Origin: Camelus ferus | Taxonomy: Eukaryota | Direction of reading: 5' to 3' | Assembly (NCBI RefSeq): GCF_009834535.1 | Contig: NC_045696.1 | Location: 71,240,001 to 71,304,000 of the forward strand | Length of the DNA: 64,000 nucleotides | Shown: positions 6,267 to 39,600 of the stretch, piece after piece | Layout: each line of letters begins with the position of its first letter | Numbering within the stretch: position 1 is the stretch's first letter | Notes under the pieces: model-generated | Told to the model about the DNA's origin: nothing | Database searches by the model: none | The model's input: only the letters and a program-made list of their open reading frames with translations | Program-made: the position numbers and the translations under genes

Positions 6267-6272
6267 TTTATT
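6267..6272 (-). terminator. Probable polyadenylation signal (AATAAA) of the HTR3 gene
   Basis: TTTATT on +, about 300 nt downstream of the stop; first canonical hexamer I see after the stop. Confidence 0.6.
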
Positions 6273-6565
6273 GGAGGAGATTCAATCAAGGAAGCATTCC
6301 AGGAACCTGAATCCTGAGGAGCCAGGCAGGCAGGACTCACAGGAGGGCTGAGGGGAGCTGATGGCATGCAGGCTCAAGGATCTGATTCAGGCGGGCATAG
6401 GAAACCATCCAGATTTGGTTTGAAACTGCACAAAAGGACTGGATTGAAAACAAGGTGATTGCTAAGGTTGTAAGGTGGGATTTGGAGAGGCATGAGAGCC
6501 TGGCTCTCTGGAGGTTTGTGGAGGCAAGAGGAGCTCTTGCCTGGATCTCACAAATGGACATCTGC

Positions 6566-6795
6566 CTAGGTGTTCCAGAGGACGATGACAGTGATGATGG
6601 AGGTGGCCATGAAGAGCAGGTAGAGGCGGAAGAGCAGGGTGTCCATCACGCGGCTGAATTGTACCCACAGGCTGACCAAGTGCTGCTTCTGAGCCTCGTC
6701 TTCCTGCTGGGCCCTCGTTGACTCAGGGCACCTATTTAACTCTGCCTCTTTTGGACCTGGCACCTTCCCCACCAACTCCACGGGCTCCTTCACAC
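6566..6795 (-). CDS. HTR3D: HTR3 subunit exon 9 (MA helix, M4, stop)
   Basis: 230 nt, ctctctgcAG acceptor, ends [13 protein letters not shown]. Confidence 0.93.
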
Positions 6796-9700
6796 CTGCA
6801 GAGAGACAGAGACTTGACTGTAGGCTGTCAAGGTCAGCTGGGAAGTTGTGGGGGCCAGGACAGGAGGCCGGAGCAGGGAAGTGGAGATGCTGGAAGAGGA
6901 GGCATGGGCAATGCTGAGTCCCCTCACCAGGCAGGTGGGCGGGGCTGAGGCCCAGGCCGGTGTTTCCCTTCTGGGGCCCAGCAGGGCAGCACTTCCTTGG
7001 GCTGGTGCAGCGCAGAAGCAGGGAATGGAGCCAGTGAGGCATGGGTGGGGGCTGGGTGGTGGCCAGGTGCAGCAGGTAGGTGATGAAGATGGTCTCCAGC
7101 AGGCTGACCACCATCAGCGACAGACACAGGGCAAAGTAGACACCTGGAGGGAAGGCAGGCCTGTATGAGGGCCAGAGACACCTCCCAAGACTTTTTGTTT
7201 CCTCTTTCCCCAGAGGGCCCTTTTCAATTTGACCTGGTTTCACTTGTCCCTCCCCCATCACACCCCCACCTTGCTTTTATTTTCCTGATGGAGGGAGGTG
7301 ACATACTGATGAGTGGGGTGCCACTGGCCGGGAGTAAGTCATTCATCATGAGCAGGAAGACGTTGTAGCCCAGCAGAAGGGTCATCTTGAATGGGGCACG
7401 GTTCCCGCTTTCTGCCGGCAGGAAGAAGCTGAGGGCATCGATGGCCATCAGAAAACTGCTGGGCACCAGAAGGTTGATGACGTAGAGTCTGGGCCTGCGC
7501 CTGATGGCCACCTGGTGGCGGGGGGACAAGTGAGGAGTAGGCTGGGAGGCTGCCAAGCCAGTTAAGAACGAGAGTTGAGAGCTGTCCCAGACCAAGCTTT
7601 CTAGTCAGGAAATGTTACCTCAAGTCCCGTTCACTGTCCTGCTTCTCCAGCAAAGTCATCTTAATCAGCACACTGCCCTTCCAGGGTTTGAGTCCACCAT
7701 GCAGCTTACCACTGAAATGTATCTCATTCTTAATTGGCCCAAAGTGGCAACTTTCTCTGCTGAAATTTTTATTCCTACCAATGTGCTCTTAGCAGGACTG
7801 GGGGACCAGATTCTTAGATACCGTGTGCATTGTATTTCTGCTTGCTTTCCTCATCAAGGTCTAATCACTAGTGACTTTGTTGTTGGACATTTAATACCAG
7901 CGGGAGGGAAAGCAAGATAGAGCAAATGTTTTGGGGTCACCAGGATTTGGAATCATAATATCTCTAAGTCAATGCTTCATAACTTTTCCACCATTTCTTT
8001 AAAAAAAAAACATAAAACTTGCTGCCCTCCAAAAATTTCTGGCAGCCCTGGGTGGTGGGAGGCTCGTGCTCATAAAAATCACTGCCATGGGAGCTTTGTT
8101 TCTTCCTCAGGGAGGATTCATTTCATCAATATTTACTGAGTGCCAGGTACCGTTCTAGGTGCTGGAGTTTATCAGTGAAAAAAGGGAAAACAATCCCTAC
8201 CCCTGCAGGGCTTACTTTCTAGTGGGAGCCCTTACTTTCTAGTGGAGGACATAGCTAGGTGTCTTAGGAGGAGATCCCACCCAGGGCCCCTGAGCTCACA
8301 TGGAAGATGATTTGGTCATACTCATTGGTGCCCATAGCCGTCTTCTTCATTCTTTGATGGATACCCTGAAGTACCCACTCCCCCTTGCTCCAAATGATGT
8401 TCTGTGATGTTTTCAAAATCTCCTGCACATCCTTATCCATGCCCAGGACCATATTCTCCACTGCAAAGGAGACCCAGACAACTCAGCTTCACCCAATACT
8501 CCCAACCCCTTTGCCCAGCCTGTTGGAGTCCTTGCCACTTAGCTTCCACAGCCCTTTCAGTGGGATTCCCTCTCTGTTCCCAGCTTTATGTCTTCTTCTC
8601 TCAAATCCCTTTCTCTACCTCTCAGAAGGCCACTATATTTGAGCTTCCCTCACCTGTGTAGATGAAAGAGCTGAAGGTGAACGTGCAGTTCTGTTCATCA
8701 AAGGGGAAGTAGAAGATGTCCAGGTTGCAGATGCTGACCACCCGCATTGGCTTGTTGTATTTGATGCGACCATCACTGTTGACATAAGCCATGAGACCTG
8801 TAGGTGTCTTATCCACATCCATGCTGTATGTGAGAAGGATGGGGAGGTGGATACTGTGGGTTCCCCATCAGACCTGACCTTCTTTCTCAGGTCGCCCCAT
8901 TCCTGTGCTCCAGCCCCACTCGTCTGACCTCCCCCTTCCACCTATCGCCATGTTCTGGGGGTTTCAGATGCTGCTCCTTTCTAGTGGAGTCTTTGTGTGG
9001 CCCCTCCTCCTGGTTACATCATTGCTCTTCCCTGGACATATGGTATCCTTGCTCTTTTCAGCCCCAATACTCACAACTCCTCGATGAAGATATCTGGAAG
9101 CCACAAGTTCTCAGCTGCCATGCTGAGTTTCCTGATGCCCCCGCATTCCTTTGGGTTCCACCTGATGAATGGGTTGTACCAGATCTGGAGGAATCCATGG
9201 GGTGGGACAAAGCAGGCAGGGGACTGGTTTTAGTCTTCCTCTGTCTCCTGCACTTTATATTCCTTTTTTCACTCATTTCTTTACTCTCCCATCCCTTCTC
9301 TGGTGACAACTGTCACAAGGTCACTAACGAAGTTTTACTTGCTTCCACTTCTCCCTCAGTGCTCTCAAGGGAGACATGGAGTTTGGCTTTGGATTCCCTG
9401 GGATGGAGCCACTTAAATATTGGCTTCCATGACCTTGGTTTATGCCACCAGCTACCTATGCCCCATCTCTGCTCTCCTAAAATGGCAGAATAACAGGAAG
9501 TTTTGCATTTTCATTATTGGTCTGGCTCTGTTGGAACTTGTTTAATTTGTGGTATTCTCAGATTTATCCATTTGAATCTGCCAAATTGGACCCTGGAGTG
9601 GAAAAAGAGAAGTATCATAGCAAAGGGGAGACTGGGACTCTCATACCATATTCAGCCACAGGAATGATGTCATCAGTTGAAGCTGTGCATCCTGGAAAAA

Positions 9701-11448
9701 CAATTTTCATCCAGGATCATTAACTTTATGAAGTCAGTTCCAATGCCACCACCCACCTCTTACTCATTTCCAAAGCAGTTCTGTGTGGCAGTTATGATTT
9801 TTAATCATAGGCACTGAAAAATGTAAGTCATATAATCCAGGGTACATGGGAAGTGTAAGTGAAAGCATCAGTATGAGGGTCCATCAGGATTATGTTTCTT
9901 GTGGAGTATTCGAAAAAAAGGGACAGATTTTACCTGCAGCAATGCCATCATAGCATTTCCTGTCATGCCTCCCTATCCCACAGACTGAGCTCTTAATTTT
10001 ACAAAATCCAGCCAGGGGACCCGCTGCTCACCACTAGACTGTTACAGAGTTGGGTCAGGACTTACTACTTCCAAGATGGCATACAGGGTGAAGGAGATGT
10101 TGACATGAGTGGGGAGGCTGAAGTTGGTGACTGGAGGGAAGGCCTTTCTGTCAAACACTGCTTGGAAGGTGGCAGGATCCACCCCGTGCTGGTCAAAGCC
10201 TGAGCAGTTGATGGTGAAAGTGTCTCCTGTTCCTGTAGAGAGCAGAGACTGTGAGAAGAGTGCTGGGGCTAGGGCCTGGGGAGTGTTTCTGCACAGAGAG
10301 ACAACAGGGGGCATGGGAGAACCGTGTGGATTCCTTCTTCCTGGGCCAGGGAGCATGGGCTGGGCTGGCAGGCAAATGGTGGAAGTTGATGAGGTGAGCT
10401 GAGCCAGGGCTCCATCCTCAATTCTGTTGTTTCTCTCTCTCCATGCAAAACTTGTCCAAATGGGTATGCAAAATCAGCCCTGACCACCATTTTTTAGTGT
10501 CCTGCTACGTTCTCAACAATCTCATCACAAATGTCTCCCCCTTCATTTCGTGTCCTTCCATTGTTTGTCTCTGTCCTTGAGCCACTGGGTTGAATGTCAG
10601 TGACAAATTTTGTAATCACAGTTCTCCTTCTCACTATATGAACAGGGCATAGATGGTCATGAATTAATGATGAGAGAAATAATCAGGTAGGTAGTGAGAA
10701 ATATGTGGGACCTTAAGGAACTCGATTTTTCAATTGAATGAGTATATACCATGTCTCTGCTATGTGCTATGATTGTTCTTTTCTAAAACTCAGGAGTCAT
10801 CACCACTGAGACCATCTTAAAAAGAGTTCCTCGATGCCCATCTCATTCCTAACCCTTTTCTTACCATACTTTGTGGAGCAGAAACTGAAAATGTATGTGG
10901 TAACGTCTTCTGGTAGAGTCTGTTTTAATCTGCCTCTGATATTGTCATATCCCTCATTGCTTATTCTCAATAATGAACAAAAAAATACTCTCAACTTGGA
11001 AACTGGACTGAAAAAGTTTCCCTCTTTCATGGCAGATCTTCTCATCTGCCTCCTTCCACTTAGCATCTTTTCTTGTTGCATTTTTTTGCTTAAGAGAACT
11101 GAGAAAGAATTTTCTTCTTCTCAACATCAATTGATGCTCAGAAGCCATGGGGATAGATTTTATGCTTGGAAACAGAAAAACATAGGGAAAAAGAAGCGTG
11201 GTGGAAGAGGGTGGAGAAGTAGCTTGAGAGAAGAGTCAACCAACTGTTAGGATCCTAGAAAGAGCTACAAAACTGTCAGTTATGAGTTAATGAACACCCA
11301 GTCACTGATAAAAATTAGCCTGGTTTCGCTGTTTCCCAGAGGTTATATATTTGCTTTGCTCTTGCTCTTGTCCCATCTTACCTTGAAGCAGCAGGTAGAA
11401 AATGAGGCAGAGAAGGAATCCTTCCCCACGGAGCCAGCCTCTTTCCAT
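6566..11448 (-). CDS. HTR3D: 5-HT3 receptor subunit, HTR3C/D/E clade (probable HTR3D orthologue, intact; may be annotated HTR3C-like), 9 coding exons, 456 aa
   Basis: Exons (minus) 11448-11382, 10232-10066, 9691-9647, 9184-9075, 8823-8654, 8460-8300, 7511-7307, 7143-6928, 6795-6566. All introns are GT-AG with consistent phases and the exons sum to 1371 nt (456 aa + TAG). The protein has a signal peptide, WLPDIF, Cys-loop [19 protein letters not shown]1-M4 and C-terminal VLWNT. Family assignment is secure; D versus C/E rests on adjacency to ABCC5 and recalled HTR3D-like residues (MERGW, FLWLNM, ECGGI, APFKMT). Confidence 0.85.
6928..7143 (-). CDS. HTR3D: HTR3 subunit exon 8 (M3, start of intracellular loop)
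   Basis: 216 nt, cctccAG / GTGAGG. Confidence 0.93.
7307..7511 (-). CDS. HTR3D: HTR3 subunit exon 7 (M1-M2)
   Basis: 205 nt, caccAG / GTATGT; VAIRRRP...[23 protein letters not shown]. Confidence 0.95.
8300..8460 (-). CDS. HTR3D: HTR3 subunit exon 6 (loops F/C, GEW)
   Basis: 161 nt, ctttgcAG / GTGAGC. Confidence 0.92.
8654..8823 (-). CDS. HTR3D: HTR3 subunit exon 5 (Cys-loop)
   Basis: 170 nt, catacAG / GTGAGG, encodes [15 protein letters not shown]. Confidence 0.95.
9075..9184 (-). CDS. HTR3D: HTR3 subunit exon 4 ([17 protein letters not shown]...WLPDIFIEE, loop A)
   Basis: 110 nt, ctccAG / GTGAGT. Confidence 0.92.
9647..9691 (-). CDS. HTR3D: HTR3 subunit exon 3 ([15 protein letters not shown], loop D)
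   Basis: 45-nt exon, tttttccAG / GTATGA, phase 0-0. Confidence 0.9.
10066..10232 (-). CDS. HTR3D: HTR3 subunit exon 2 ([17 protein letters not shown]...AILEV)
   Basis: Acceptor ctctacAG, donor GTAAGT, 167 nt. Confidence 0.92.
11382..11448 (-). CDS. HTR3D: HTR3 subunit coding exon 1 (signal peptide [22 protein letters not shown])
   Basis: ATG at 11448, hydrophobic core, donor GTAAG at 11381-11377, 67 nt, phase 1 matching next exon. Confidence 0.85.
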
Positions 11449-13805: not shown

Positions 13806-13873
<68 letters not shown>

Positions 13874-20250: not shown

Positions 20251-20799
20251 TACATACTTCAGCTGTATGATACATTGGTGTTTCACAGTAGCAAGTTGTA
20301 TAAATGTGGACAAGTCACTTTCCTTGCCTTTTTAAAAAATTTAGTTTCTTAAATGGATAATCAGAATACCCCCACACAGGGTTGATATGGAAATTTTCTT
20401 AAAGAAGTATGTAAAGCACCAGATACAGAATAGGTAGGCACTCAACACAGTAGTTATGTTATAATCATTGAAGGCACAGATGAAACACAAAAAGAAAGTA
20501 ATCAATCTCTTTGGGAACCTCGGTTTCACTTAAAAAAAGAAAGGGATGAATTGGCATGCCGTTTCTAAGCCTCTTGCCACTCTGTAAACTGTGATGAGGG
20601 CATTTTATTATCTGGAAACCAGGCAGCACAACATAATGCGATGGGCAGTGGGATTAATGTGAGAAAGGTGATAGCACAGAATGCAGAGTCATGAGCAAGT
20701 AGTGGTAAAACGTTAAGGGCCACACAGATAGGATCTGGGGCTGGCTGGTTGCCAGGAGATAGAGGCTACCGATGACCTTCAGTGTTTTCTGGTGCATAA

Positions 20800-21560
20800 A
20801 CGGTCACGCACCACCGTGGCCGATCTGCCTACAAACACTGGGCTGCCCGCCCACACAGGGCTGCTGTCAACCCTCCCTGCCACCCCTGGACACGGCCTCA
20901 GAGAAGATTCCAGACAGGCTCGCAGAAGCTCTGGGAAGGATGGTGCAGAGCCTGGAGCGCGCTGGAAAGGGGGAGCGGCCTGCACCTCCTCCAGGGCTTC
21001 TACGGGGCTTCTGGGAAATATAGTCCTTTGCCGGGAATCGCGCCTCAGGCTCCTGGAAGGGGGACTACAATTCCCTTCAGTCTTGGGGAGTCTTTGTGCA
21101 GCACGCCTGCGCAGTCTGGCGACCAATGCCGCTATAAAGGCTTGTTTTGCTCCGGGGCTAATGCTCGCGAGCGTGGTCGAGTGGCCGACACGGCCCTCCT
21201 GGAGCTGGGGCACAGGTAGGTAGCGGCGACCGCCGCACCCCTTTCCTTCTCCCTCGGGTTGTCACAGGGCCCACCGCCGTGTGTCTCTTCCAGGGGTGGC
21301 GGGCTGCGATCGGGGATGCGAGCAGTTTGGGGGAAGCCAGAGACCTGAGAAACGGGGCCTGGCCTCCCTCTGGTCTCCCGCCGTCCCTTGCTCGAGACGC
21401 GACCCCCAAGAGCTAGTGGTGAGGTCCTGGCGTAGCAAGGCAGGTAGGGTGGGAATGAGTGGTCCGGGGTTCCTGCTACACCCGGCTGACACCACCAGGG
21501 GGTGCTGCGGCCGCGGCCCGTGGACGTGGGTCTCTATCACCTCTCCAGGCCCCAACTGGC
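20800..21560 (+). promoter_or_regulatory. ABCC5: CpG-island promoter of ABCC5
   Basis: Densest CpG stretch of the window, spanning exon 1. ZNF143-associated motifs at 21011-21025 (minus) and 21063-21075, NRF1-like GCCTGCGCA near 21105, CCAAT 21123-21127, TATAAA 21133-21138. Confidence 0.85.
21140..21215 (+). other. ABCC5: ABCC5 non-coding exon 1 (5' start uncertain)
   Basis: Donor CAG|GTAGG at 21215/21216 inside the CpG island; resembles the human ABCC5 5'UTR as I recall it. Confidence 0.7.
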
Positions 21561-24479
21561 CATGGAAACGCCCTAGAGCCAGAGCATCCTAGTTGAAAAT
21601 GGCCTGAGAGAAGTCCTTATCCTCAAGGTTGTGGGAAGCCAGCCTGTGGCACAAGCCACATACCGGAGACTCTGAGCTGCCAGCGACCGCAGAAGTCATC
21701 CTCTCGTTTTTTGGCGAAGGGGTAGATGGAGGTTCGTTACAGAAGCACGCACAGCAAACCGTGGGCAGAGCCTGGATTAGAATCCAGCTCTCTTGACCGT
21801 CGTCAGTGCCCTTTCCACTTTACCACGCAGAGCTGCATGGTGCTTTGTATTTATCACACAGGAGTGATTTGGTTTCTGCACAGACGTGGGGAGGCAGGAG
21901 GCACGTGGGCACAGGAACGACCGGCAAAGTTTCAGAGGGTTTTGAAGGAGAAGATGGTTAAGTTATTCTGGGGTCTCCAGCGTTAGTGAATGAAAGGTGC
22001 GGGAGGCTGGAGCACAACAGGTGGATTTTAGGAGGGTGGTTAAGTACCTGTCCTTGTGGTTCCAGATCTTTGCGTAGCTTCAGGGCTTGGAAGCAGATTC
22101 CTGAGGTGTCGGAAACAGGAATGTCATAGTGAAGGCAATTGGGAAGCACCAATCTGGCTACTTACAGGCTTTGTAATCCTGTGCAAACCCCCTTCCCCCA
22201 TACAGTTTCATTTGCATTATTGTGCAGGAGAATGTCTACACTTTTATCACTGAGAGTCTTGGTTAAAAACAAACAAACAAACAAAAAGGCAGCTGACCAA
22301 GTGGCCTCCATGCTATTGATTTTGAGTTCTGAGCACCTTAAAGAGGTTCTCCCACTTGGATTACTCTGCTAGTGCCATCATACAGCTCCAGCTCAACCAT
22401 AAAAAAAAATCCCTTCCCTTTTCCCTCTCTTAATAGCTGGAGCAAGTTAGCATTTTAAAAAAGACTTTTAAACAACTCTAAGGGAGAACAAGAGAAAAGA
22501 GGAAACTAAAATAGTTTCCAGAAAAGTCTAGCCTGGTGGTCCTTCCGATCTGGGCCTTGTTTGTTTCCCAAACCTATTGGGCTTCCTAGCTCTTGGCTAG
22601 CCTCCGTGTGGGGGTGCCCTGTCTTATATCCCTGGTACACAGAAGATGGAATCCTCCTTATGTTCCAGGCCAAGAGATAGTAGCTTTGTCCCTGCACAAG
22701 GCCTGCCTTCTTTCATAGCTGTGCCTCTTTTCCCAGCAAATTAAAGAAGCAAGAGTGTTAGAGGGAACGGGAGGCTGCTCCCCACACCCTTCATACATAG
22801 AATAACTTCAGTAAAGTGTTGGCTTACATGAGTTCTTAGACAATTGAGATGATCCTTATGTACTTCCCGACATGGCATGTGGTACTGTAAGTGAGTGAGT
22901 TACTTTAGCCTCCTCCCTTTCAAACTCCCTCCCCTCCTCTTGCCTTTTTTCAAAGGAGGACAAATCTTTTCTGCTTTCACATAATCAGCTAGGCTGGGGA
23001 ACCTTTGGAGGGGAGGGTTGGCCTTTGCAATCCCTGTAACAAGGAGGATTACTCTGATCTGCAGCTGCATCCTGACATTGAGGACACTGACAGATGCCAG
23101 GTCTGTTTATAGTGTAGGCTTAATGAGGTCTCCATGACGTGATTACTGTGCTCTTGGTTGTAAGCCGGGGTTCTCTATGGTGCAGTTTGTCATTGGACAA
23201 GGTGACTTTAAAGATAAGTAACTTAGCATTATTATCTCAGGGTACTTGAGCCAGACCTCTGAAAGGCAAGAAGTCAAGCTTTCTTTGTGCTGGAAACCCA
23301 TCTCTGTGGAGGAGTTTGAGTCCTTTTTATTTAGAGGATTTGTAAGTGTTCTCCTTTTTTCCCTGGTACCTTAAAAAATGAATTGTAGCCATTGAATTTA
23401 GTCTACAAAGTTGTACTTTTAAGTCTCAGTGATAGCTAGGAATTTATGGAATTCAAAAAGCAACACAGCTACATTTTAATTTCTAGTGAGACCAGTATGA
23501 AAGGTGTTTTCTCAGCTTGTATCTGGGAAGCTTTGAACCATCTTAGAGTAGGGGAAATGTTTTGGAGAGGTATGTATGTGTTTTATTTTCTCAAAAGTAA
23601 CCAGAGTTGATACCGGATATTGATTAAAGTTAATCAGGCTAGCTGAGGTTTAGAGCAGAGTTTCAGGTAGCTACTAGGTAAGACTAAGCAGAGCAGAGTG
23701 GGGAATTTGTTTTTGTTATTGTTTCTTAATAACAGCTTCATTGAGATATTTGTATACCATGAAATTCACTCCTTTAAAAGTCTACAACTTGGTGTTTGGT
23801 TAGTATATTAACAGAATTATGCAATCATCACCACTAACTCTAGAACACTTTCAGTACCCTGAGGAGAATTTGTTTTTAAAGTTAAGGTATAGTATTGTTT
23901 TGTATTTTAGCTATGCAGGTTCACAGAGCTTTAAAAACAACAGTTAACCATTATCTAATTATAAAAATACAAAGATGGGATATATCATTGTTAGAATAAG
24001 TGTTTTATAAGTTTTCATTTAGTAAAATTTATCCATTTTACAATTGTGGAATTTGTAATGCTTGGAACAAACTTAAATTGTTTCCAGAAAGCCTTTTTTT
24101 TTTCAGGCCTATCTAAATGCTCTGTACATTGTGTTTGAACGTAGTTGAAGGTGAAGAGGGTAGGTGTCTCTTTACTATGTTTATTTTTTGCTTGTTTGTT
24201 TTTCCCTTAGAAGTGGGAGGAGAGAATTCTTGAGTCTCTCACACGGAATTTTTTCTATTGAAAAAAGAAAATGGTACATGAACATTTTTTGAAAATTTAC
24301 GTTTATAGTTATAATAACAGAAAACTGTAATGCTTTTGTTCTTTTTTCCTACTTCAAAGCACTTTTTGCTTATGATTAAGCACAATTTAGGAAATATCTG
24401 TCCTTGATGAATTTTTAATTTCAGAAGTTCTCAAGTGGAACCAAGAGCCTGTGAGCCCTGGCACCATCACTCAGAGAAG

Positions 24480-24608
24480 ATGAAGGACATTGACATAGGG
24501 AAAGAGTATATCATCCCCAGCCCTGGTTATAGAAACGTGCGGGAGAGAACCAGCAATTCGGGGCAGCCCAGAGACCGTGAGGACTCCAAGTACAAGAGGA
24601 CTCAGCTG
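24480..24608 (+). CDS. ABCC5: ABCC5 exon 2 coding part (exon starts 24425)
   Basis: Acceptor tttcAG at 24423-24424, ATG 24480, donor GTCAGT at 24609; 129 nt. Confidence 0.93.
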
Positions 24609-27600
24609 GTCAGTACTGCCTTTCCTGAGTCCCTCTTACCTGCTTGTTGTGCTCCACCCCACCTTCTCTTTCCCCATGATGCATAATTTAAAAGAAGTTT
24701 CTTTTTCTTTATCAGCTTTAGGTCACTGTTAAGAATTTATGGTTATTTATGAAAGAGGAGAGGTTGGCCCTCAGCCTCTCCTCTGTTTTTTCCCTTTGCG
24801 TTCTCCCCTCAAAAGGCTTTGCTGGAGAGAAGACAACTTATGAGTGTGGGGTGGGCTGAGGTGGGGGAAGGGCTGGGCAGGGAGCAGAGGAAAAATAAAC
24901 CATTAAACTTCATTCATGTATTTAAAATCATTTTTTTCCTCGGCCTCTATGTTTAAAGTGTGATTCCTTTGGGGAGACTATTCAGTTTTGTTTTGTTTTG
25001 TTTTTTCCTCTTAACGGAGGTACTGGGGATTGAACTCTGGACCTCGTGCATGCATGTGCTCTGCCACTGAGCTATACTCACCTCCCCAGAGGCTATTCAG
25101 ATTTCAGAGCATACTTGGAACAATTCTAGATTGTTGGAGGATATCAGTAAAATTATCAAGTAAATCCATGAATGTAAAGGAGTCTTTAGATAACAGTCTA
25201 GGTTCCTCCAAGGGAAATAATGAGTATACATTTTAAACTGGAAGAAATTTTTTTCTTCGAGGGGAAAAGACTGTATTTTTTCTTGAATTGCAGAAGTAAC
25301 TAATAAGGAAGAATGGGGGTTGCTGGGTAGTAAGCTGAGGTTTGTGCTCTTGTAATTACTCTGTGAAAATTGGAGAAAGATTCGGCCCTGCATCTGACAC
25401 TTGAGTTTCATTAGCCTGACATTACCTGTTCCTCTTTGCTGTGTGAAAGCTGTTGCCTTATTAACTGACATTGGCTCACCATCAGGTGTTTTCTGTCCCC
25501 ACTGTATGTTATACAGTGCTTTCCCATTCAAGCCTCACTTTGGAGAAACATAGATTTAATGGAATCAGTGTCAAATCCTTAAGGTGCCAGTTCTGTAACT
25601 TTGTGTTCTTTCATCTCAACCTTATGTTAATTAAACATGTATTGAATATCTTTTGAGTGCTAGACACTGTTAGTATAGTATTTAAACTGGAAAAAGTCAC
25701 AAAGGTAACATTGGAGCAGGGCTCTGAAGGGTGATTAAGTGGGGATGCTTTCAAGCTACTTAAGTCATCTGTGCCTTAGTGGTTTTGGAATAAAATGATA
25801 TTGACCTTAGAACCTAACTCATGGGATCCTTGAGGATTAAAATGAGCTAACACATATAAAATGCTTAGAATGGTGCATGCCACATAGCCTGTGCTCAAAA
25901 AATGTTACCTTTTATAACTAGTTGTCTGGAGCATAGGATGTGCATGAGGAAGTTCTGCATGCCACACTAAGGAATCTTGTAGTGTGGGCTTTGGGGAACT
26001 ATAGGAGGTTACTGAGGAGGGTTTTTTTTTCTTTTAGCTTTTTATTTTGAGATAACTATAGATCCACATGCAGTTGTAAAAAAATAATACAGAGAGATCG
26101 TATGTACCTTATCCAGCTTCCCCCAGTGATAACTTCTTGCATACTATAGTACAGTATCACAACAGGTTATTGATTGACATGGATACGATCTACCCACTTT
26201 ATTAAGATTTCACCGGTTTTATGCGCACTCATTTGTGTATGTGTTCTATGCAGTTTTTTCACATGTGTAGATTTGTATGACCACTACCATGCTCAAGATA
26301 CAAATCAGCTCCACCAAAAGGATCTGTTATGCTACCCTTTCAGAGCCACAGCCACCTCCCTTGGCCTCTCCCCCAATCTTTGGCAACCACTCCTCTGTTC
26401 TCTATCACTGTAATTGTTACTTTAAGAATGCTATACAAATGGAATCATATAGTATGTAACCTTTTTTTTTTTCATTTTTCAGTTTTATTAGGTAGAATTG
26501 TTACAATTTGCACATATACAATATCATATAGTATATAACCTCTTGAGATTGACTTTTTCACTCAGCATAATTCCCTTGAGATCCATTTAATTTGTGTATA
26601 TCAATAGTCCTATCAATAGTTCTTTCCTTTTAATTGTGGGTAATAATCCATGTTATAGATAGACCGTACTTTGTTTAACCACTCATCTGTTGAAGGACAT
26701 TTGGATTGTTTCTAGTTTGTAGCTATTACAAACAAAGCTGCTTTGAACATTTATGTATAGGATTTTGTGTGAATAAGCTTTCCAATTTTCTGGGTAAATT
26801 CCCAGGAATGTAATTGCTGGGTCTTACGTTAAGTGTGTGTTTAGTTTTATCAGAAACTTCAATGCTCTTTTCCAGAGTGGCTGTACAATTTTACATTTCC
26901 ACCAGCAATGTTCAAATGATCCAGTTTCTCTGCATTCTTGGCAGTACTTGGTATTATCACTGATTTTATTGTAGCCATTCTGATAGGTATGTCTGATAGC
27001 TCATTGTAGTTTTAATTTGCATTACCTAATGGGTAATGCTCTTGTGCTGAGATTTTTAAGACTTGATTTTTATCTTAGGGAGATTAGTTTTGAGGCAGTG
27101 TAGAAAAAACCTGTATGAGAGAGAGAGAGAGAAGAGAGAACCAGGGATCAGTCCAGAGGCTCTTGTGTCTGTCCACATGAGAGAGCCCAGGGGTCTGGGT
27201 CCAAGTGCAATAGTGAGGATGGAGGAGAGATTTAGGGGCATCTCTGAAAGGGGAGGGAAGCATTAGGGTACCTTGGATTGGTGGTAAGAATTTAAAACTA
27301 TTGGTGGACATTCAGGAAGAGAAGGAGAAAGAGGTGAGAATGAGTTTGCTTCTGAATGTGTTGAATTTGAAGTGCATCCAGGTAAGATGATCAGTAGACA
27401 GAGCCTAGGCAGGAAGTCGGGTAGGGGAAAGGTTTTGGAGTCTTTAGTGTGTCTGTGTAGATGAAGCCTTAGGAGTGAGCAAGCTGCCCATGGATGGCTT
27501 GTAGAGCAGGAAGAGGTAGAACCTGGAAAGGTAGTGTGTGGCCCTGTGAAATTTCTGGGGACAGGGGTCCTGTCTGGTTGGTTAGAGTAGAACTGACATT

Positions 27601-30600
27601 AGGATGTGCAGTGGCAGCAGCAAGTTTTTCCTTTGTAGGTAGAGAACTGGAGAGTCACTGTTGTGCCCTTTGTCCCCTAAGTTATTAAGTCAGGCAGCAG
27701 ACAGCAAGTTTCCTTCATGTGACTCAGCCCTGTCTTGAAGAAACAGGAAGGCTGATACCAACCACTTTTATAAAATGTCAAGAGTCCACATGAATTTCAT
27801 TTTCATTATCCTTTCATTTCCTAAACTTTTAAATTTGAATACTGTTTTTCTTTTTTTTTTTTTTACCATATCCTGTACCCTCTGAACTTTTTTCTTAAAC
27901 TATTTCTTTTAACCTACTGTTCTTTTTCCTTTTGCTCAGCCTTGACCTAAGCAATAGAATCGTAGGTTTATGCAACCTATTTTTTACATGTGTTAAAATG
28001 AATGCGTAACTATCAAGTGTTTTTAAATTTTACATACCACCCAGAACCTTCTTGCATATTACCTGTCTGAAACTGAAATTTCTTAAATATATTTATCTTG
28101 AACTTGGCTCATATGTTAACAGTTTGCTAATAGAGGGAATCAGCAAGATGACAAATTTCTGGTTCACTGATGGTATAAAAACAGATAATTTAAGTATTTG
28201 GGATGTAGAATGGCTATATAAGTTTTTAAGAATGTAAGCAGATAATTGGGTAGAGATTATTATTTCGTGTCTCATGAGTCATAACCATCGTTTCTATATT
28301 AGTTGTTAGAGATGAAATCTGGGGCAGAACCTCCCAGATGCCAAATATACTTAATATTCATCAGAAATAAAAACTAGGGGAAAAAAAAGAAAGAAAAAAC
28401 AGTACCTCCAAAAGTAAAAAAAGATAAGAATATATCTGTGACTCTTAATTGGAAAACAAGGTTTTATTCACCATCATTAGCCTTTGATAGGTCCAGTCAA
28501 CATGTTTGCATGAAACTGTCAAACAGAAATCAGAAGCAAAGCACCAAGGAATAAATTCTGATTTTAAACAAGTCGGTGATTTTTTTTTCTCTTAAGCTGT
28601 AAGCAAAGTTGCAGAGTACACAGTTTGCCCATTTCTTCATATTGTGACCAAATCTTTCTTTTGGAATACTCTTTGGGAAAATTGGTCTAATCAGTCACGC
28701 CTTCAGATATTTGTATCACATCTACTTAGAGATAATTAAGGTAAAAATGATGCATTTTCACACCTACCCTTTGTTTGAAACTATTAAGGTAAAAACTATG
28801 GCCACCCACAGTCTGATGATTCGCAGGCATCCTTTAATCCTGAAGTGCTAATAGGGGTGCCTTCTATGGCTGTTAGTTCTTTGAGCATAAGCACTAATCT
28901 TGGTTGGTGTTCAGCTGGTGTTATTTCAGCTCACATGAAGATTTACGTCCAGACCACTCCTTAACACTGTTCCTGTGTCTGCAGCTTAACTCCCCAGGCA
29001 CAGTTCCTTTTCTTATCATTGCGTTCAGATAGACACATGTCGCTCACATAACTCCATGAGCTTTGGTTGGTTTGCTTTAAAATGTGATGTTTATTCATTT
29101 TTCAGTGCAGCAAACATTTGAGCACTCTCCAGGATGCATACACAGCCCTGAACGAAGTGGTCTGGTGCGGGTGAAGATAAATGGATGCTGGGCCAGCCCG
29201 CCCTCTGCTAGAAGCAACTCATGGGCATACACATAGATTACTATAATTTACATGCCACAGTAATTAATAAGAAGGGCAGAGTGCTTCTGTCTTTGAGATC
29301 AGGGAAGGCTTTAGGAGGAGGTAGCGCTTGGTTGGAGACTTGAGGAGTAGGTAGAATTTGGAGAAATGAAGAACATGCCTGGCAGAAGAAAGAGCTGTGG
29401 GTAGGACCAACTAGGTGCTGCTGGCTTTGAGCGTGAAGTGTGAAGTCACAGATGTAGAGGGATAGGTCCGCAAGTTCCACTTGATGTGTGTCCTTGAATA
29501 ATAGGCCAACAAGTTTGGATCTTAGTTGCTTTAAATTAAAATTTAAGCAAAAGCAAGACAAAGCTATTTGATGCTTTTATAAGCTTTTTTATTGTGATGG
29601 TTGTTTCTTTTCTTACTGTGCTCAGGCCAAAGCCCAAAACAAGGTGACTTGTTTTTCCCTAGCATGTCTAATCTAGGAAAGGAGGAAACATGGAAAATAA
29701 GCAGAAGTCAACTAAAGTTCATGTGCCGTGATTACCACTTGCCCTTTCCCCCTCTTCTTTTAGAAGTGTACCACTGGTGCAGTTTGCTTTCTACCAAGTT
29801 AGAATGTTCTCCCTCTAGACAAAGTAACAAAGCAAGTATTCACGAAGTCCAGTGACCTTCACTTAGAGTCTCCTTTAGATCTGTGTTAGGCTGACACTTT
29901 TAACCTTGGTTGGTATGCTTATAATTAGTGAGTTGAGATACTTGGGTGAGCTGAAGTCGTATCCTAAAGATCAAGGATGTGGGTGTAATCTTTTAACAAG
30001 AAATATAATTCTAAGATATATTATTATGGAAGAATTCCAGTCTTATTATAGAAAATGTGCGAATTGTAGAAGATTATAGAAAAACCTTAACCCCTCTACC
30101 CAGAGACAACTATTGTTATAAAATAGTTTTGTCTAGTACATTATACTTTTAGAGAATTTGACTCTGAAAGCTTTCCTTTATGGGCTAAGGGTATGTGAAT
30201 TTGTCTATGCCCTTGTGATTTCTGAGTCAAAAACATTACCTATGAGTCTCCTTGCTGTTAGGAAGCAGAGCAGGGTGAAGGAGATTAGTGTATTTGCAGG
30301 CTCTGCATTATTTTTCTCTTGATTGGTACTCAGTGACTCAGCAGATTTTCTGGACAGTGATAGGATGAGTAAGAACACATGCCTTTTTTTTTTTCCTTTT
30401 CCCTGAAGGCATCCATAAAGCTGTATAAAGCTCAGTACGGTATGGTACGGTATCTGGCCTGGTGTCAGATGTTGGTCTCCAATAGCAGCCCAGAGCTCTC
30501 TGCTGGAGGTGACAACAGTGCTGCCATTGGTGCGCAGCCCAGGTGGCTCTCCTGTGTGGGGACTGAATCTCCAGCACCACAGGTCTCCTGAGGCTGGCCT

Positions 30601-33600
30601 GCTGCCTTGATCAGGAGCCCTTTTACGCTGTCTGCAGCAGGGCTGCTGCTTCTTTCCTGGGAAATGCTGCTTAAGGGAAATAAACACAGCTTGTTGGCAC
30701 AAGTTAAAGGAGCTTTCTGTCAAAAGGGAAGAAAAGTGTTGGAACCAGCTTCCTTTTTTAAAAAGCAGTTTTAAATACCCAAGGCTTTGTTTTGTTAAGA
30801 TCTATAACTTGGAAGTTACAGATGGTTAATGAAAACTTTTTAAGTGAAATCTTGGTTGTGCCTTGAGGTAGCCTTCTGCTAATGCTTTCTTGAATGTCTC
30901 ACTATTCTGTCCCTCCCTCTTTCTTAATCAAAAATAAAAAGGTCAATGGCAGGGACAGGAAATAGGGCCTCCGGAAGTCTTTGTGGTGGTTGAACCTATC
31001 AATATCAAAATTAGGGACTAATGTGATGTTAATTTGGTGCACAGTTCACTAATTAGTAGAATTAAACTCATTAAGTCTATTCCTTCTCTCCTTATCCTCA
31101 TTTTAGGGTGTTAACCTGTTTAGATAATTAGATGTTCTATATGTTTTAATTATTTAAGATTATTTTCTGAATTAACTGTTCAAAGAATCAACTTAAATGT
31201 GTTATTAGGTATCAGATGAGAACTTCTGTTTGCTAAAGCAGGTATGGTGTTGAGCAGTCACTTTGTTTCCTCAAATGTTGTATTCTCACAGTGGAAAAGT
31301 AGCCAGGCTGCACAAATCTTCACCCTTGCGTTTGCTGCTCACCGTTGTTAGCAGTTCCAGCCTGCCCTGCAGTCCAGGGTTCTCAGGATGGACCCACTAA
31401 TGTCTTACACTAAACATTTAACATGGGCATACAGATGGTACTGGGCACTGAAGGGAGTTTCACTTACAAATTATATTTTAGCTTTTTTTTTTAAGCTATA
31501 GCCTGAAAATCTTGAGGGGATTTTGTCAAATGCAAGAGACCAGCATTCTACTATCTACATCAGTGGTTCTCAGTCCAGGCTGCATATTAAAATCACTTGA
31601 AGAACGTTTGAAAAAAAAATACTGATGTTCCAGATGAATTCAACCAGTCTCTGGGGTAAGGCTCAGGCATCAGTGTTGTTTTAAAGCTCCCCTGGTGATC
31701 CTCCTGTGTCGCCAGCACCAAGATAGCACAGAATAAAGTCTCTTGTAGCCCCTCACCCCCTGGGGCTCTAAGTGTTTCCCATGTCTTTTTTTCCCCCTGT
31801 GATTTATTTTCAGTTTAATCCTTTGAAACCTTATCATTGTAATAACAAAGTTAATCTCACACCCCAATGTAATAGGAACTTTGAAAAAGTTCCTTGGAAT
31901 TTAGCTTATGAATCAACTGGAAGCCTTCAAATTCCTCCTGATCCTGGGTTAATGCTAGATTATGAACTGCGGAAAGATACCTGTTTTACCGTGACGGTGG
32001 TGTTAAGTTATAGCACTTGGCTTTACGTATTTTTTTACTCTTGTGAATTATATGAATAGCTGACCCTCCGCATGAGAGTAATGCAGCCTAGTTACAGCTG
32101 AGTGAGCTGAGGTACAAGTTAACTCATAGCCTTTGAGCAATAGGACAGAGGTTAGCAGGTTCCCTGACTTTGAATAGTGAGCTTTTTCTACTATATTCTG
32201 CTTCCTTCCCGTGAAGGTTATGTTCTAGAATTTTGTTGCTCCCTTTGGAAGTTCTTAAGGGAACTGCTTGCGACGGTCAGGATCACGTTAATAACCCATT
32301 GGACTGAGGAAGTGTGGAGAATTGGGAGAGGGAAGATCCTTCGTTAGTGTTCTTTTAACTTGCTGGAGAATGGGAAAGCCTGGAGTCAGCTGTTCTTGGG
32401 AGGGCATCAGCTTTTTCTTTTCTTTTTTAATTTAAAAGAAAATTTAACTTTCTTTTTAATTTAATTTTTAACATTTTGAGTCTCTTGAAACCTGTATCTG
32501 ACTGTACCCCTTAAAAGTTGGTCTTTCTAGGGGGAGGGTATTGCTCAGTGGCGGAGCCCATGCTTAGCATTCACGAGGTCCTGCGTTCAATCCCCAGTAC
32601 CTCCATTAAAAAAAAAAAAGTTGGTCTTTCTAGATATTTGTCATAAAGGCAGCTGCCGGTCTGGGACATCTACAGAGGCCTGTCCATTCTAATTGTGCCC
32701 CAAGTACTGCTTTCTTTGTGGGGTGTGCCACACGGGAGGATTGCAGCCTTTAATCCCCTTGGAAGCTGAGAGGTGCCTCTGCACTGCGGGTAGTTTTTGA
32801 ATCTCTGCATTCAGGAGCCTCTTGGTTGAGTCCGCAGCCCCAGGTTTAGGAATGCTGCCCTGCTGTTGTCCTGCTGTCCAGAAGGGATTGTTCAGCCTAG
32901 GGAATGATGTCTGGCCCCTGGTATCTTGTCCCAGGGGCCTCTAGGCAGGGGAAAGACCACGGTTGCCCTGTCAGCAGACATTATGCTCTGGCGGCCTGTT
33001 AAAAAGAGCTGGGACAACAGATAAACGGAAGCCATCCTGTGTGATAGTGGGCTAATTATCACAGCCCCTGGAGGGTCTTAGCCCGCACAGAGGAGGGAGG
33101 TCTCTTGTGCAAGCACCTCTGTTTGCTTATGGATGGAAAGTTCCGTGTTTCTCTCACCAGCTAGGCACGTAAAGGACTGTGTTTCCCTGACCTTTGTTTG
33201 AACCGTTGCAGAGTCTGAATTTCATTGTCCCCTTGTGGTTTCCCAGTGTCCCAACCCCCTACCCCCACTCCATCTCCATCCCCTTGGTAGGAGGGAAAAA
33301 ATGCTCAGTGTCTCCTAGCCACAGAGTCCTCAGGAAGATACAAATGGCAGCAGTATTTCCTTGTTTAATGTTTTCCCAGTTCCCAGATCAAGCAGTACTT
33401 TTCCTTTTGGAATGAATCAGCTGCTGCGGATGCCTCTCTGAGGCCATGTCATCTGGCCACGGAGAGCCCTTCAGTCTGCAGGGCCCCTTAAGAGAAATAA
33501 AGAGAAATGCATGCCCTCACCCTGTCTCAGGAGAAGCTTTAAAAAGTTACTGCTAACTGCTATATATAAAATAGATAAACAAGTTTCTACTGTAGAGCAC

Positions 33601-36600
33601 TGGGAACTATATTCAATATCTTGTAGTAACCTACAATGAAAAGGAATATATATATGTAAATGTATGACTGAAACATTATGCTGTACACCAGAAATTGATA
33701 TAGCATTGTAAACTGACTATACTTCAATTTTTAAAAAATTGTGCAAAAAAGAGATTTAAATTATCATAACATAAAAAACAAATAGACCTCATAAAATACA
33801 TCTCCCTAGATCAGCATGCATCAAGTACTAACCATGTTAGCTGTTTAGCTACCTAGGGCCACCTTAGTGCTACTGAGGTTTGGGGTCAGATAATTCTTTG
33901 TTGTCGGGGGGCTGCCCTGTGCATTATAGGATGTTCAGCAGCATCCTTGGCTTCTACCCACTGAAGGTGCAGTTGTGACAACCAAAAATGTCTTCAAATA
34001 TTGCCATATGTCCCCTGGGCAAGCTAAATCACCCTCACTCGAAAACTGCTGGGATATGCTGTACAAAACAAAACACACCTGTAGGAACTGGGCATTTGAA
34101 ACGTGGCCAGTCTGAATTGAGAGGTGCTGTGTATATAAAACACCCCCCCCCCAGATTTCTAAGACTTAGTACAAAAAAAGAATGTAAAATATCTCAGTAA
34201 CTTTTTTTTATTACATGTTTAGAAGATAATATTTTGTATATATTGGGTTAAATAAGGTGTATTATTATAATTAATTTCACATGTTTCTTTTTACTTTTTT
34301 AACGTGGCTACTAGAAAACTTAAATTACATTTGTGGCTTGTATTCTGTCTCTATCGGACAGCCCTGCACTGGAGTGTTGATCAACTTGTCGTTTAGCTGT
34401 TAATCTTGTATTAGGCATTTAGTTCCCAGTAAACCGTTGGGTTTAAATTTTATTTTCGTTTGGAAAATTTTCCTTCCTACGGTAATATTATGGAGACAAA
34501 GCGTATGTGAGTTATTACCTGTGACCAGTTTGCTCCCCTGAGTACCTGCCAGTGACGTATTAAAAAATGCCCAAACGATGTGTGTTTGTCTTACGTTTCC
34601 CTCCTTCTCGGGTTGGATTTTATCTCTTTTTCTTATTAAGGTGTATGTGGTTGTATCTTAAAATTTAGTTTTTATTTCTTGATTGATGACATTGAATTTA
34701 GAGGCTGAGAGATAGAAGCTTTTGAACCAATTTAGTAGATTATTCAAGATTTTGACCTTTTATAAATACTAGAATATAACCTGCATGAAGGCAGTGATTT
34801 CAAAGTGCAGGTCTATTTTTTCAATCCTGTGTCCCCAGCACCCACAGCAGTGCCTGGCACATAGTAGGTCCCTCAATAAATGCTTGTTGAATAAATGGAT
34901 AAAAAATGTTATTCAGTGAAAGCTGGCTGTTCAAAATATGTTATTATTTTGGTTACCTTGTCACTTCTTTAGCTTTATTCTCCTCCTTAATGCTAATTTC
35001 ATTACACAGAAAGTTTTTCTTTTTATATTTAAGCCTGTCCATCTTGGCTTTGATAAGATTCTGGCTTTGGGACAAAATGGAGACTATTGTGCTTCCATGG
35101 GTGTGCTAAATTTCCTGTTTAATTCTCTTCTATTTATTTCATTACTTTTATGTAACTTTTGGGGTTAATCCCAGATGGATTAATGTATGGTGTGAAACTT
35201 GGGTCTCAATTAATTTATCTCCAGTCTGTTTTTCATTTGTCCCAACAGTATTCGCTCAATCATATTTCCCTATCCTGTTATATTATTTATGTGTTCATAT
35301 AGTAAGCCCATATAGCTTGAATATATTAAGTCTTTTTTCTTGGTTCATTTCCATTTTTAATCCACTCAGTCTTAGAATGTTGACAACTCGCTTCACAGAA
35401 TGTTAATGTGGTAGAATAAATTTGTTTCTACTTTAAACAGACATTTTTTTTTTTCCTGGCCTACAAGGCCAGGTAAGCTTTTTTGGGAAGCCTAGAAAGG
35501 AAGAGAAGTTAGGGATCCAACCGAGCAGTTATAGTATGAGACATTTATGCAGTTACTGGCAGGGTAGTATAAAGACGCTTTTATTTTATTTTTAAATATC
35601 AGTCTATAATGTATTCATCTTTTAGCATCTGCTCATCTTTGGCTAAAAAACAACCAGGAAGTGCCTTTTTACAATTAAGTAAAATATTTACATTCTAGTG
35701 TTCTAATTGTGACTTTGACTTTGGAAACTACCATTTGCTTATAATGAGGTTAGTTAGGAGAGTCAGAGTTAGAGAGCCATAGTTTATTTTAATCTGATAC
35801 TCACCCTGGGGAAGAGAGGAGAGCTGTCTGTAAGGGCACATCTGAGGTCATCTTGTACAGTGATGATTTATTTGCTTGTTTTTCCTTTGAAAGGCACATA
35901 GCATAGTGATTAAGGGTCTCAACTCTGGAGCCTGGATTCAATCTCTCTGCTTTTCAAGGATCTCTTCAAATCTCTGCTGCTACTTGCCATCTAAGTGCCT
36001 CAGCTATAAAATGGGGGAAACTTCATAGGGTAGTTATGAGGATTACAAAAGTTAGTATCTGTAAAGCATTTAAAGCAATGCCTGGCACATAGTAAATGCT
36101 ATGTCGGTTTATAGTAAGTTCATTTGCCCATATTTTCCGATCACCTTCAAGTAAGCATTTGCCTTTATAAGTACACGCTAGTCAGGAGATCTGGCCTGTA
36201 AACAAGGAAGATTGCCCTAGCTTCCCCTATTTCTTGCTAATGTTCCAGTGTATGTGGGATAGAGGCAGCCTTAGGTCAGCAAAATAGATCTGAAAGTACT
36301 AAAACTAACAGCAGTTCTCTTCACCCCCGCCTTTTTTTTTGGTTTGTGAGTGAGGTAATTAGGTTTATTTATTTATTTGTTTAATTGAGGTACTGGGGAT
36401 TGAACCCAGAACCTCGTGCATGCTAGACAAGCACTCTATCACTGAGCTATACTTTGACCCCCTAATAGCAGTTCTCTTTTGCGATAATACTGGAGTACAT
36501 AGTCTATAATAAAGTTAATTAAGCAAACTGGATAGATGTCTAATTCCTAGGAGCTACACACTTTAATCTTATAATCCCACTAATGGAATTTATCCTAAGT

Positions 36601-39600
36601 AGTCCAGAAAAAGAAAAATAAACTGTAATTGTTTATTGTACTATTAATAATAAGCAAAACAGCAGAGAAACTAAACGGAAGTGGATTGGTTAAGAAGATT
36701 CCTTAGTGGTAGGTATATCATGCAGCTTTAACTGATAATAATACAGATTGTAAGGCAACATGGAGGTTTTCTAAGTGACACTTGAATAATAGGTACCAAG
36801 CTTTGTACTGTGCTAGGGGCCAAGGATGCTTTTAGCAGAATCATCCCACTGCAGTGGTCCAGTGCAGGGAAGACATAGGAGAGAGGAAATAAATTCCCTG
36901 AGCTTGAAAGGGAAAGCTAAAGGAATGAGGAAATAGTTGAGATAGGCTGTAAGATTTATCAGATGGATAAATCGGTAATATAGTTAATACATATTAAATG
37001 TTTGTTATAGACCCAAGACTTTGCTAAGCACTTCTCATTATCCCATTATTTCCTCTCAATGCTTTGTGGTACATGCATGTGCCATTGTAAAAATGAGTAA
37101 ACTGAATCTTGAAGTGGCTAGGAACACGCTGAAAGTTGGTGATAGACTTGGCCTGTTAGCTCATGCCTGTCTTCTAAAATCTATGTTCAAAATCACTATG
37201 GAAAATTTTTTTTATGGATTATTAATACTTTAAGACCATAGTTTTATTGGAGTAAGGGGATTTTTCCATTGATTTTCTTGGTAGTTTTATTTTATTATTT
37301 AAGAGTTCTTGCCAATAGCTAACTACCTGTTGCTTATTGTTTTGAGAGCCCTGTCTCTGAAGGAGGTAGGTGCAAACAGGGAGCAGGACTCTTTCCTTCA
37401 AAACAGAGGATCCCACATAGATCTTCTCATCTCCATCAGATATTTCATTGTCTTAACCTTGGCAAGATATGACAAGATTGACAGTTTGGGAAGTAGTTTA
37501 GGAAAGAATAGCAAAAATATTATGTGACTTGGAAAGTGGGTTGCTTAGAATGACAACTTTTGATTATCTTAGATCAACAATGTAGACCTCTCTATACCCT
37601 TACTGTGAGAATTCCTACTCCATGTTTTATCATTATATGATAGTTTAAGGATTAGTTCAAACACTTTTTCAACCACTTTCATGGAGGGTTATCTTTGTCA
37701 GGATAAAATTATACTGAGTGCCTTGTTCTAAAATCTAAAATGGTGCAAGAGCCCTCAGTCTGATATGTTACAGGCATTTGATAATGCTGGAATAGTACTC
37801 ATGATATGCCTGAGGGAATGAAACCTTGCCTGCCCGCTCTCTTCTGAGTCTTTTTTAAAGAGCCTTTAAGTTTGGCATCTCCACTGCAGGAACTAACTTA
37901 CTACCCAGTAGGTGGTAGAACATGACATGATTGTATATAAGTCAAAGGAACAAAACTCTTAAGAGTATTTTGTTTATTGTTGTTGTTAAGTCCATTCGCT
38001 TTCCTATTCATAGGTTTTGATGCAGGTTGTAACTAAGTGTTTTAGAGATGAAGAAAATGAAATTAGTGTATTATACACATAGAAATTGGCATATTTTTAT
38101 TCCCAGTATCTGAAACAGTATTATTGCACATAGATACTCAGTAAGTTATTTATTGAATGAATGAATGAATGAATGAAATAAGATGTAAAGATTTTATTTT
38201 TCTCTTAATGCTACTGTGCCGTTCTTATGTAAGAATATGAATGGATGGCATACCAAATTTTCTTTTTCTGATGCTGTAATGTCAAAAGATGTTAATGAAA
38301 CTCTCCTAACTCTTGAACTTAGTTATCTTGGAAAGGCAAAAGAACTAGAACAGTTAAGCCAATTTTGCAAATGAAGAATAAAGGTGGAGATACACTGTGG
38401 TGTTTTAAGACTTACTGCGTATCTATAGTAATCAAGTTAATGATACCTTTGAAGAGACAGACAAATAGGTCAACGGAATAGAGTTCAGGAATTGACCCAC
38501 ACAAGTATGGTCAATTCATTTTTATATAAGTGCAAAAGCAATTTGATGGAGAGATGATAGTCTTCAACAGATGGTGTTGGAACAATTGATATCTACAGGC
38601 AAAAAAGTAAGCCTTTGCCTAAATCTCACACCTTTTACAAAAATTAACTCAAGGGGGATCATAGATTAAATGTAAAACTGAAACATTTAGAAGAAAATAT
38701 AGAAAATATGACCTAGGGTTAGACCTAAGAGTTCTTAGGCATAACACTAAATGTTCAGCTGTTAAAGACAAAAAAAATCAATAAATTAAACTTGATCAAA
38801 ATTTAAAACCTTTGCTCCATGAATGACTCTATTAAGAGAGAAAATACTTTCAAATCACTTGACAAAGGGCTTGAATCCATAATAGATAAAGAACTCTCTA
38901 AAATCAACACTAAGAAAACAACCCACTTAGAAAATGGGCAAAAGACTTAAACGACACTTCACCCAAAGGATAGAAATGAGCACAGGAAAAATGTAAAATA
39001 TCATTAAGCATTAGGGTAATGCAGATTAAAATCATGCTGAAATACTAAGCCACACCTATCAAGTGGCTAATATGAAAAATAATGACGCTACCAGGTGATG
39101 AGGAGCACGTGGAGAAACTGGATCTCTTATACATTGCTAGTGGGAAAGTGAAATGATTCTGTGACAGAGTAATTTCAATGACAACTAATGTTTGAATTGT
39201 GAGTAATGTCAGGCTGCTTTATATACTTCTCATGCAACAAAAAAGTTAAAATAAAGAGTGAGATCTCCATTACCATACAGATTTGCAGTTGGTATATTTT
39301 CTGAGGTTAAATTACAGTTCCAGCAGAGTGTTTCAGAACCTCAATGAAGTACAATGGAAACTTCCATATTTCAAGACCCATTCATTTTATTTTATTTTAT
39401 TTTTTATTTTTAAAAATTGAGATATAGTTGATTTACAGTATTATATTAGTTTCAGGTGTACAACATAGTGATTCAAAATTTTTATAGCTTATACTCCATT
39501 TATTATTTATTATAAAATATTGGCTATGTTCACTGTGCTGTACAATATATCCTTGTAGCTTGTTTATTTTATATATAGTAGTTTGTACCTCTTAATTCCC

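Follow-up and report, generated by a model that had tools for sequence, protein, structure and literature searches.

The C, D and E subunits of the 5-hydroxytryptamine type 3 (5-HT3) receptor are found in several mammals but not in rodents (PMC4055881). The human 5-HT3D protein is described as having no Cys-loop bond, or only half of the loop, and no signal peptide (PMC8584345, PMC9977066, PMC8376721), and the same reviews doubt whether it works. A similar case is GLRA4, a Cys-loop subunit that is intact in other mammals and broken in human (PMC9124788). Here we describe a 64,000-nucleotide stretch of the Camelus ferus genome (assembly GCF_009834535.1, contig NC_045696.1, positions 71,240,001 to 71,304,000; hereafter the window), whose minus strand carries a gene of this family next to ABCC5. 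We put at about 0.88 the probability that it is an intact nine-exon HTR3D with a Cys-loop domain, likely encoding an accessory, 5-HT3A-dependent subunit, and that the human and Old World monkey proteins match its exons 5 and 6 in a shifted frame, likely via two compensating frameshifts. Judging from sequence comparison, human HTR3D is likely a decayed remnant, while a working subunit is probably retained in many other mammals.

The camel gene extends from window position 11448 to 6566. All eight introns have GT-AG borders, and the joined reading frame of 1371 nt translates into 456 residues with a single terminal stop and no internal stop. The protein has a C-x13-C Cys-loop in the extracellular domain, four N-glycosylation sequons, a hydrophobic N-terminus and four membrane stretches (by hydropathy). 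The camel database model P0003 scores above the cut-off for PF02931 and PF02932; together with hydropathy and the alignment to 5-HT3A, this gives a ligand-binding domain followed by four membrane helices. A preliminary description of the locus had listed nine clean exons encoding 456 residues with a full extracellular domain, and the splice sites, open frame and Cys-loop bear it out. The features of the gene are the following, where D clade denotes the HTR3D clade of the trees described below.

11382..11448, minus strand: exon 1, start codon and a hydrophobic stretch of 22 residues (MERGW...), a candidate signal peptide; 15 of 22 residues identical to the colobine model P0072; present in the Camelus ferus model P0171
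10271..10294, minus strand: intron 1 stretch with a GTG start that reads VQKHSPGP; 7 of 8 residues match, by eye, the first eight of canonical human 5-HT3D
10066..10232, minus strand: exon 2, likely converted; shares 94.6% identity with its counterpart in the HTR3C-like neighbour
9647..9691, minus strand: exon 3, loop D with W90; skipped in two camelid database models
9075..9184, minus strand: exon 4, loop A, WLPD motif and E129 (gene model and alignment)
8654..8823, minus strand: exon 5, loop E, Cys-loop and loop B; catarrhine HTR3D appears to depart from its frame near 8786
8685..8729, minus strand: Cys-loop, C162-C176; both cysteines in 47 of 47 D-clade rows, from searches that favoured intact exons
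8654..8785, minus strand: +1 frame of exon 5, 44 codons; apparent source of the odd human segment but no gene in camel
8300..8460, minus strand: exon 6, loops F and C; catarrhine HTR3D appears to rejoin the frame near 8381
7307..7511, minus strand: exon 7, M1, M2 and M2-M3 loop (gene model and alignment)
6928..7143, minus strand: exon 8, M3 and start of the intracellular loop; 99.5% identical to the HTR3C-like neighbour
6566..6795, minus strand: exon 9, MA helix, M4 and stop (gene model)
6555..7537, minus strand: conversion tract common to the C-like and E-like neighbours; exons 7-9 92-99.5% and intron 8 85-94% identical
6267..6272, minus strand: AATAAA, candidate polyadenylation signal (sequence motif)

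Human isoforms -1, -2 and -4 of Q70Z44 were taken from the supplement of PMC9124788 and compared with the camel gene by eye. The two genes share the ABCC5-proximal position, and exons 1, 2 and 4, the 5' end of exon 5, the 3' end of exon 6 and the membrane domain correspond in frame. In contrast to the camel protein, the human isoforms read most of exons 5 and 6 in the +1 frame and have no Cys-loop. A gap-free segment of isoform -4 is identical to the camel +1 frame of exon 5 at 31 of 44 codons, compared with 17 of 44 for the +1 frames of either the C or the E gene; it continues in the +1 frame of exon 6 (13 of 20) and is back in frame at EWV. Isoform -2 starts in exon 5 and joins the shifted exon 5 to exon 7, and isoform -1 starts in intron 1, its first eight residues matching the camel intron at 10294 (7 of 8); the camel gene does neither. 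The VQKHSPGP-type stretch was not found in the three camel paralogues. The human protein also has additional residues ahead of M1 and within the M2-M3 loop, with none in camel, and one human residue suggests that the codon for the second Cys-loop cysteine has since changed as well.

The same displacement is seen in a fused database model from the colobine Pygathrix nigripes, P0072, in which the HTR3D-like part comes first. A frame-aware alignment of its residues 100-209 to camel exons 5 and 6 gives 69 of 109 identical positions if the frame is changed twice, by net +2 near 8786 and by net +1 near 8381. The score is 313 for camel HTR3D, compared with 156 for the C-like, 124 for the broken and 186 for the E-like camel copy; it is 212 when no frame shift is allowed, and 40 shuffles scored at most 56. 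The 36 exon 5 and 6 residues of P0072 that stay in frame are nearest to lemur D proteins (0.81, 0.78), and the clade means for these residues are 0.65 for D, 0.49 for E and 0.47 for C. P0072 changes frame at two more places, the ends of exon 2 (10074) and exon 7 (7315; weakly aligned), and uses the 3' end of intron 1. Since human and colobine proteins both match the shifted frame, the Cys-loop exon appears not to have been lost in catarrhines but to be misread.

We propose that the two frame changes would scramble about 72 residues (143-214), comprising loop E, the Cys-loop, loop B and loop F, and that the second would restore the frame ahead of M1. Further shifts where exons 2 and 7 end, together with a start in intron 1, would make patchworks of the annotated human isoforms. 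The shifted-frame match would explain why human 5-HT3D has neither a signal peptide nor a Cys-loop. Because lemur D proteins are in frame and the human and colobine proteins are shifted, the decay likely occurred after the lemur split and before the split of apes and Old World monkeys. HTR3D, unlike GLRA4, is still listed as a protein-coding subunit, because a long reading frame stays open through the compensating shifts and the odd splicing. The preliminary description had suggested that the human protein reads the Cys-loop exon out of frame, and the human and colobine matches support it; a mismatch between human HTR3D and the shifted frame, which it had named as contrary evidence, is not seen. 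The human segment and the MERGW start that it had given are both present in isoform -4. New relative to it are the apparent extension of the shifted reading into exon 6, a second frameshift that would end it, a lesion that an Old World monkey seems to share, and the likely conversion of exon 2 with the HTR3C-like neighbour.

The camel gene could be orthologous to human HTR3D and the shifted primate product could still be a new protein under selection, namely a modulator with a short domain whose frame the compensating shifts keep open, rather than a product of decay. The shifted span is stop-free in human and in the colobine model, although the camel +1 frame stops in exon 6; the probability that it is open by chance under recoding is about 0.03; and functional effects of human 5-HT3D with 5-HT3A have been reported (PMC8376721, PMC9977066). 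However, annotators choose open paths, and the human isoforms take differing splice paths through the shifted region. Moreover, chimpanzee HTR3D has lost its first coding exon (PMC2041999) and four of six non-human primate 3D models are flagged LOW QUALITY (PMC9977066 supplement), both being signs of primate decay, and the colobine model has a gap of six residues in M1. We therefore consider a selected new protein unlikely, though it keeps some weight, and favour decay.

Another explanation assigns the shifted frame to the mammalian gene itself: exon 5 would be dual-coding, with an internal +1-frame ATG and skipping of exon 6 yielding a conserved short isoform like human isoform -2. In camel this path is open for 260 residues, and a mammal-like open reading frame, P0119, has the same open frame. 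The frame at 8633-8941 noted in the preliminary description is real, measures 102 residues from stop to stop and contains the string quoted there. However, a stop in the +1 frame is forced by 13 of 47 D-clade proteins, and the openness in camel is at chance level (a probability of about 0.10 for the part of the exon from residue 143 onwards, and 0.04 for exon 5 as a whole). Given these values and the stop in exon 6, the +1 frame is no gene in its own right in camel, and we reject conserved dual coding of exon 5 as very improbable. A protein search with the shifted frame returned one of 77 candidates, the mammal-like open reading frame; it also missed P0072 and is no evidence of absence.

For the phylogenetic analysis, 116 of 169 proteins were retained after removal by hand of fragments, fused models and redundant isoforms, and were combined with three camel models (119 rows); a second tree of 38 rows was built with IQ-TREE and bootstrapped. 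Support for the D clade and for the camel trio was taken from a bipartition check. On exons 3-6, the camel gene falls into a separate placental clade of 47 rows (support 1.0), recovered by IQ-TREE with 15 of the 38 rows (bootstrap 100). The clade includes afrotherians, artiodactyls and whales, horses, carnivores, bats, shrews, lagomorphs and three lemurs. It lies apart from HTR3C and HTR3E, whose places are occupied by the camel neighbours. Among the D-specific residues is a non-Glu at position 216, which is Glu in 70 of 70 C and E rows. The unconverted camel exons are closer to primate HTR3D than those of the paralogues are (the human part by eye). Clustering of exons 1-6 with HTR3C or HTR3E, which the preliminary description had named as evidence against its proposal, is not seen for exons 3-6; its view that the gene is a conventional, ancestral-type HTR3D at the HTR3D position gains support from the clade, the position and the shifted-frame match.

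The membrane half of the gene has a different history. Identity to the neighbours is 62-81% in exons 3-6 versus 92-99.5% in exons 7-9 (95-99.5% for the C-like neighbour alone), and the tree of exons 7-9 no longer recovers the D clade but joins camel D, C and E (bootstrap 96). The high identity and the camel-wise grouping indicate that this half has been homogenised by gene conversion, which the preliminary description had guessed for the 3' exons. The M1-M4 half of camel HTR3D is, by its sequence, common to camel C and E and not D-specific. The paralogues also cluster by species or order on exons 7-9 in mole, lemurs, dog with otter, and horse with rhinoceros; the membrane-domain exons thus appear to be recurrently converted across mammals. 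With HTR3C and HTR3E the camel gene shares the nine-exon plan, the length of 456 residues in camel, the Cys-loop, the loop B Phe and the nearly identical M1-M4, and it differs from them in its distinct lineage in exons 3-6.

Such similarity could suggest that the camel gene is an additional copy of HTR3C rather than the counterpart of human HTR3D by descent. The camelid and most other members of the clade are named 3C, 3C-like or 3E-like, and exon 2 (94.6%) and exons 7-9 closely resemble the C-like neighbour. Exons 3-6, in contrast, form their own clade, and the position, exon 1, intron 1 and the shifted-frame matches all indicate human HTR3D. These observations already contradict a second HTR3C copy, which is scarcely credible, and we retain the assignment to HTR3D.

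The best protein matches to camel HTR3D come from Camelus and Vicugna. Model P0172 equals residues 23-456 of the 456-residue protein, and the Camelus ferus model P0171 equals the full protein minus exon 3 with one residue difference; combined, the database models cover all nine exons. These partial camelid models are already in databases as 3C, 3C-like or 3E-like, and the listings give the name 3D to only 3 of 46 database rows of the D clade. The intact HTR3D gene is widespread and mostly labelled '3C-like'. With 46 proteins from many placental orders in its clade, the camel copy appears to be not special but an ordinary intact member of a mislabelled group. A Camelus ferus 3D model is in the supplement list of PMC9977066, flagged LOW QUALITY, as are 11 of the 12 non-primate RefSeq '3D' models there (LOW QUALITY PROTEIN); judging from the list rather than the sequences, these flags possibly arise from forcing the human frame onto intact genes. 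That database models skip exons 1, 3 or 8 suggests thin RNA support, and the camel gene could have an intact frame and be silent or under relaxed selection. However, its frame and splice sites are intact, open full-length or near-full-length proteins are found across afrotherians, laurasiatherians, lagomorphs and lemurs, and the D clade evolves at a rate similar to that of the C clade (0.211 versus 0.216). Silence or relaxed selection is accordingly quite improbable.

Several observations weigh against an intact camel HTR3D with a decayed catarrhine counterpart. The ratio of nonsynonymous to synonymous substitution rates (dN/dS) on exons 3-6, at 0.20-0.40 against the paralogues, in itself favours an intact gene, but the value of 0.40 against the C-like gene is high. 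W210 and L202 of the camel protein are unlike most D proteins. A fold prediction of P0172 (27 rows) was uninformative (predicted local distance difference test score 38), and RNA runs with the 3' part of camel HTR3D are indistinguishable from the converted paralogues and were not used as evidence. The frameshifts are read from proteins and not from human or monkey DNA. P0072 is a single, fused prediction and may be a projection of the human protein. Protein searches, which are weak evidence here, found no D protein of a New World monkey or tarsier, which leaves the dating loose. Reports that human 5-HT3D assembles together with 5-HT3A and changes responses (PMC8376721, PMC9977066) speak against its being plain junk. 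A metagenome scan gave two weak 20-residue matches among 281 stretches and was not used as evidence either.

The roles of the binding and pore residues of 5-HT3 receptors are known from structure-function work. The vicuna model P0002 aligns with the solved 5-HT3A structure over the extracellular domain and M1-M2 (E 4.5e-76). It shares with 5-HT3A the Cys-loop and the Glu of loop A, the Trp of loop D and the Tyr of loop C. The camel-type D protein differs in having Phe for Trp in loop B (Phe183; Phe is found in 46 of 47 D rows and likewise in C and E), Asn for Glu at M2 -1' (Asn277), and Glu, Gln and Ser in place of the three MA-helix Arg, and it is unlike a 5-HT3A-type homomeric subunit at Phe183 and Asn277. 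The loop B Phe, in view of this background, points to an accessory subunit that needs 5-HT3A; the human C, D and E subunits are stated to need it (PMC11339754). The camel D subunit would not supply the principal serotonin-binding face but would co-assemble with 5-HT3A and tune the pore, where the -1' Asn and the missing MA arginines are predicted to alter permeation.

We speculate further that human HTR3D, still counted among the five 5-HT3 subunits, could be a disguised unitary pseudogene of catarrhines, with proteins pieced together from intron 1 and from exons read out of frame between frameshifts that compensate each other, and that the real 5-HT3D survives as a mislabelled, never-assayed '3C-like' gene across placentals including lemurs; we hold this view tentatively, at a little under even odds. 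The camel gene offers both an explanation of the human protein and a ready test of a real D subunit, as natural full-length proteins (camel, pig, dog, ferret, lemur) are testable with 5-HT3A. It bears on how studies of variants in human HTR3D are interpreted and on models of emesis or gut function in dog and ferret, in which an intact D would be present. It also reveals an annotation trap, with intact genes called 3C-like and '3D' models flagged LOW QUALITY. The words frameshift and gene conversion are absent from PMC9977066. Our literature searches found no paper on an HTR3D frameshift, and the primary papers of 2003-2009 are known to us from references only. Karnovsky 2003 reportedly classed two of the cluster's four genes as pseudogenes, and Holbrook 2009 is said to have reported mammalian orthologues; part of this account of HTR3D decay and orthologues may already be in print.

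Camel HTR3D is arranged head-to-head with ABCC5, whose part of the window is as follows.

20501..64000, plus strand: 5' part of ABCC5, a synteny marker and not part of the gene; CpG-rich at 20501-22000, first coding exon at about 24480

A window exon at 50780-51016 matches the solved ABCC5 with E 4e-41. By tblastn, no further 5-HT3-like exon was found between 11448 and the window end. HTR3D is adjacent to the 5' end of ABCC5, as the preliminary description had stated, at a distance of about 9-10 kb from the start of ABCC5. Beyond the left end of the window the genome contains three additional tandem 5-HT3 copies, in the order ABCC5, HTR3D, C-like, broken copy, E-like. Camel HTR3D is the first cluster gene at the 5' end of ABCC5, which is the place of human HTR3D in the order PARL-ABCC5-HTR3D-HTR3C (from a title cited in PMC8584345). 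The C-like and E-like neighbours are intact genes of 456 residues that group with primate HTR3C and HTR3E. The camel order fits the human one, in which the pseudogene HTR3C2P lies between HTR3C and HTR3E.

The broken copy (G000:C1:71216872-71220573; L014, L015) carries a frameshift in exon 2 and damaged splice sites, and its Cys-loop exon 5 is interrupted by a stop. Intact-looking relatives of it may exist in other mammals, in a sub-clade of armadillo, lemur, deer, badger and mole rows and in the third part of the seal model P0001. On exons 3-6, the HTR3C-like gene (G000:C1:71232225-71237776; L013) sits on a long branch (0.28), and its dN/dS versus D is 0.40, consistent with faster change of its extracellular domain. 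A lone exon-5-like fragment with two stops and 66% identity is located on another contig (G000:C11:41410515-41410628; L007) and is possibly a processed or dispersed remnant. Intron 8 of camel HTR3D (6796-6927) is 132 nt long and free of in-frame stops, and its retention would add 44 residues to the M3-M4 loop, giving 500; intron 8 is 130 and 131 nt long in paralogues, and its openness in camel HTR3D is thus probably due to chance. Between HTR3D and ABCC5, a long pyrimidine-rich simple repeat at 13540-14050 yields spurious open frames. Within an intron of ABCC5, an open frame at 44503-44772 that ends in LKPIRTTSK is likely an internal ABCC5 exon, and its upstream part may, by resemblance, be an alternative short-isoform exon.

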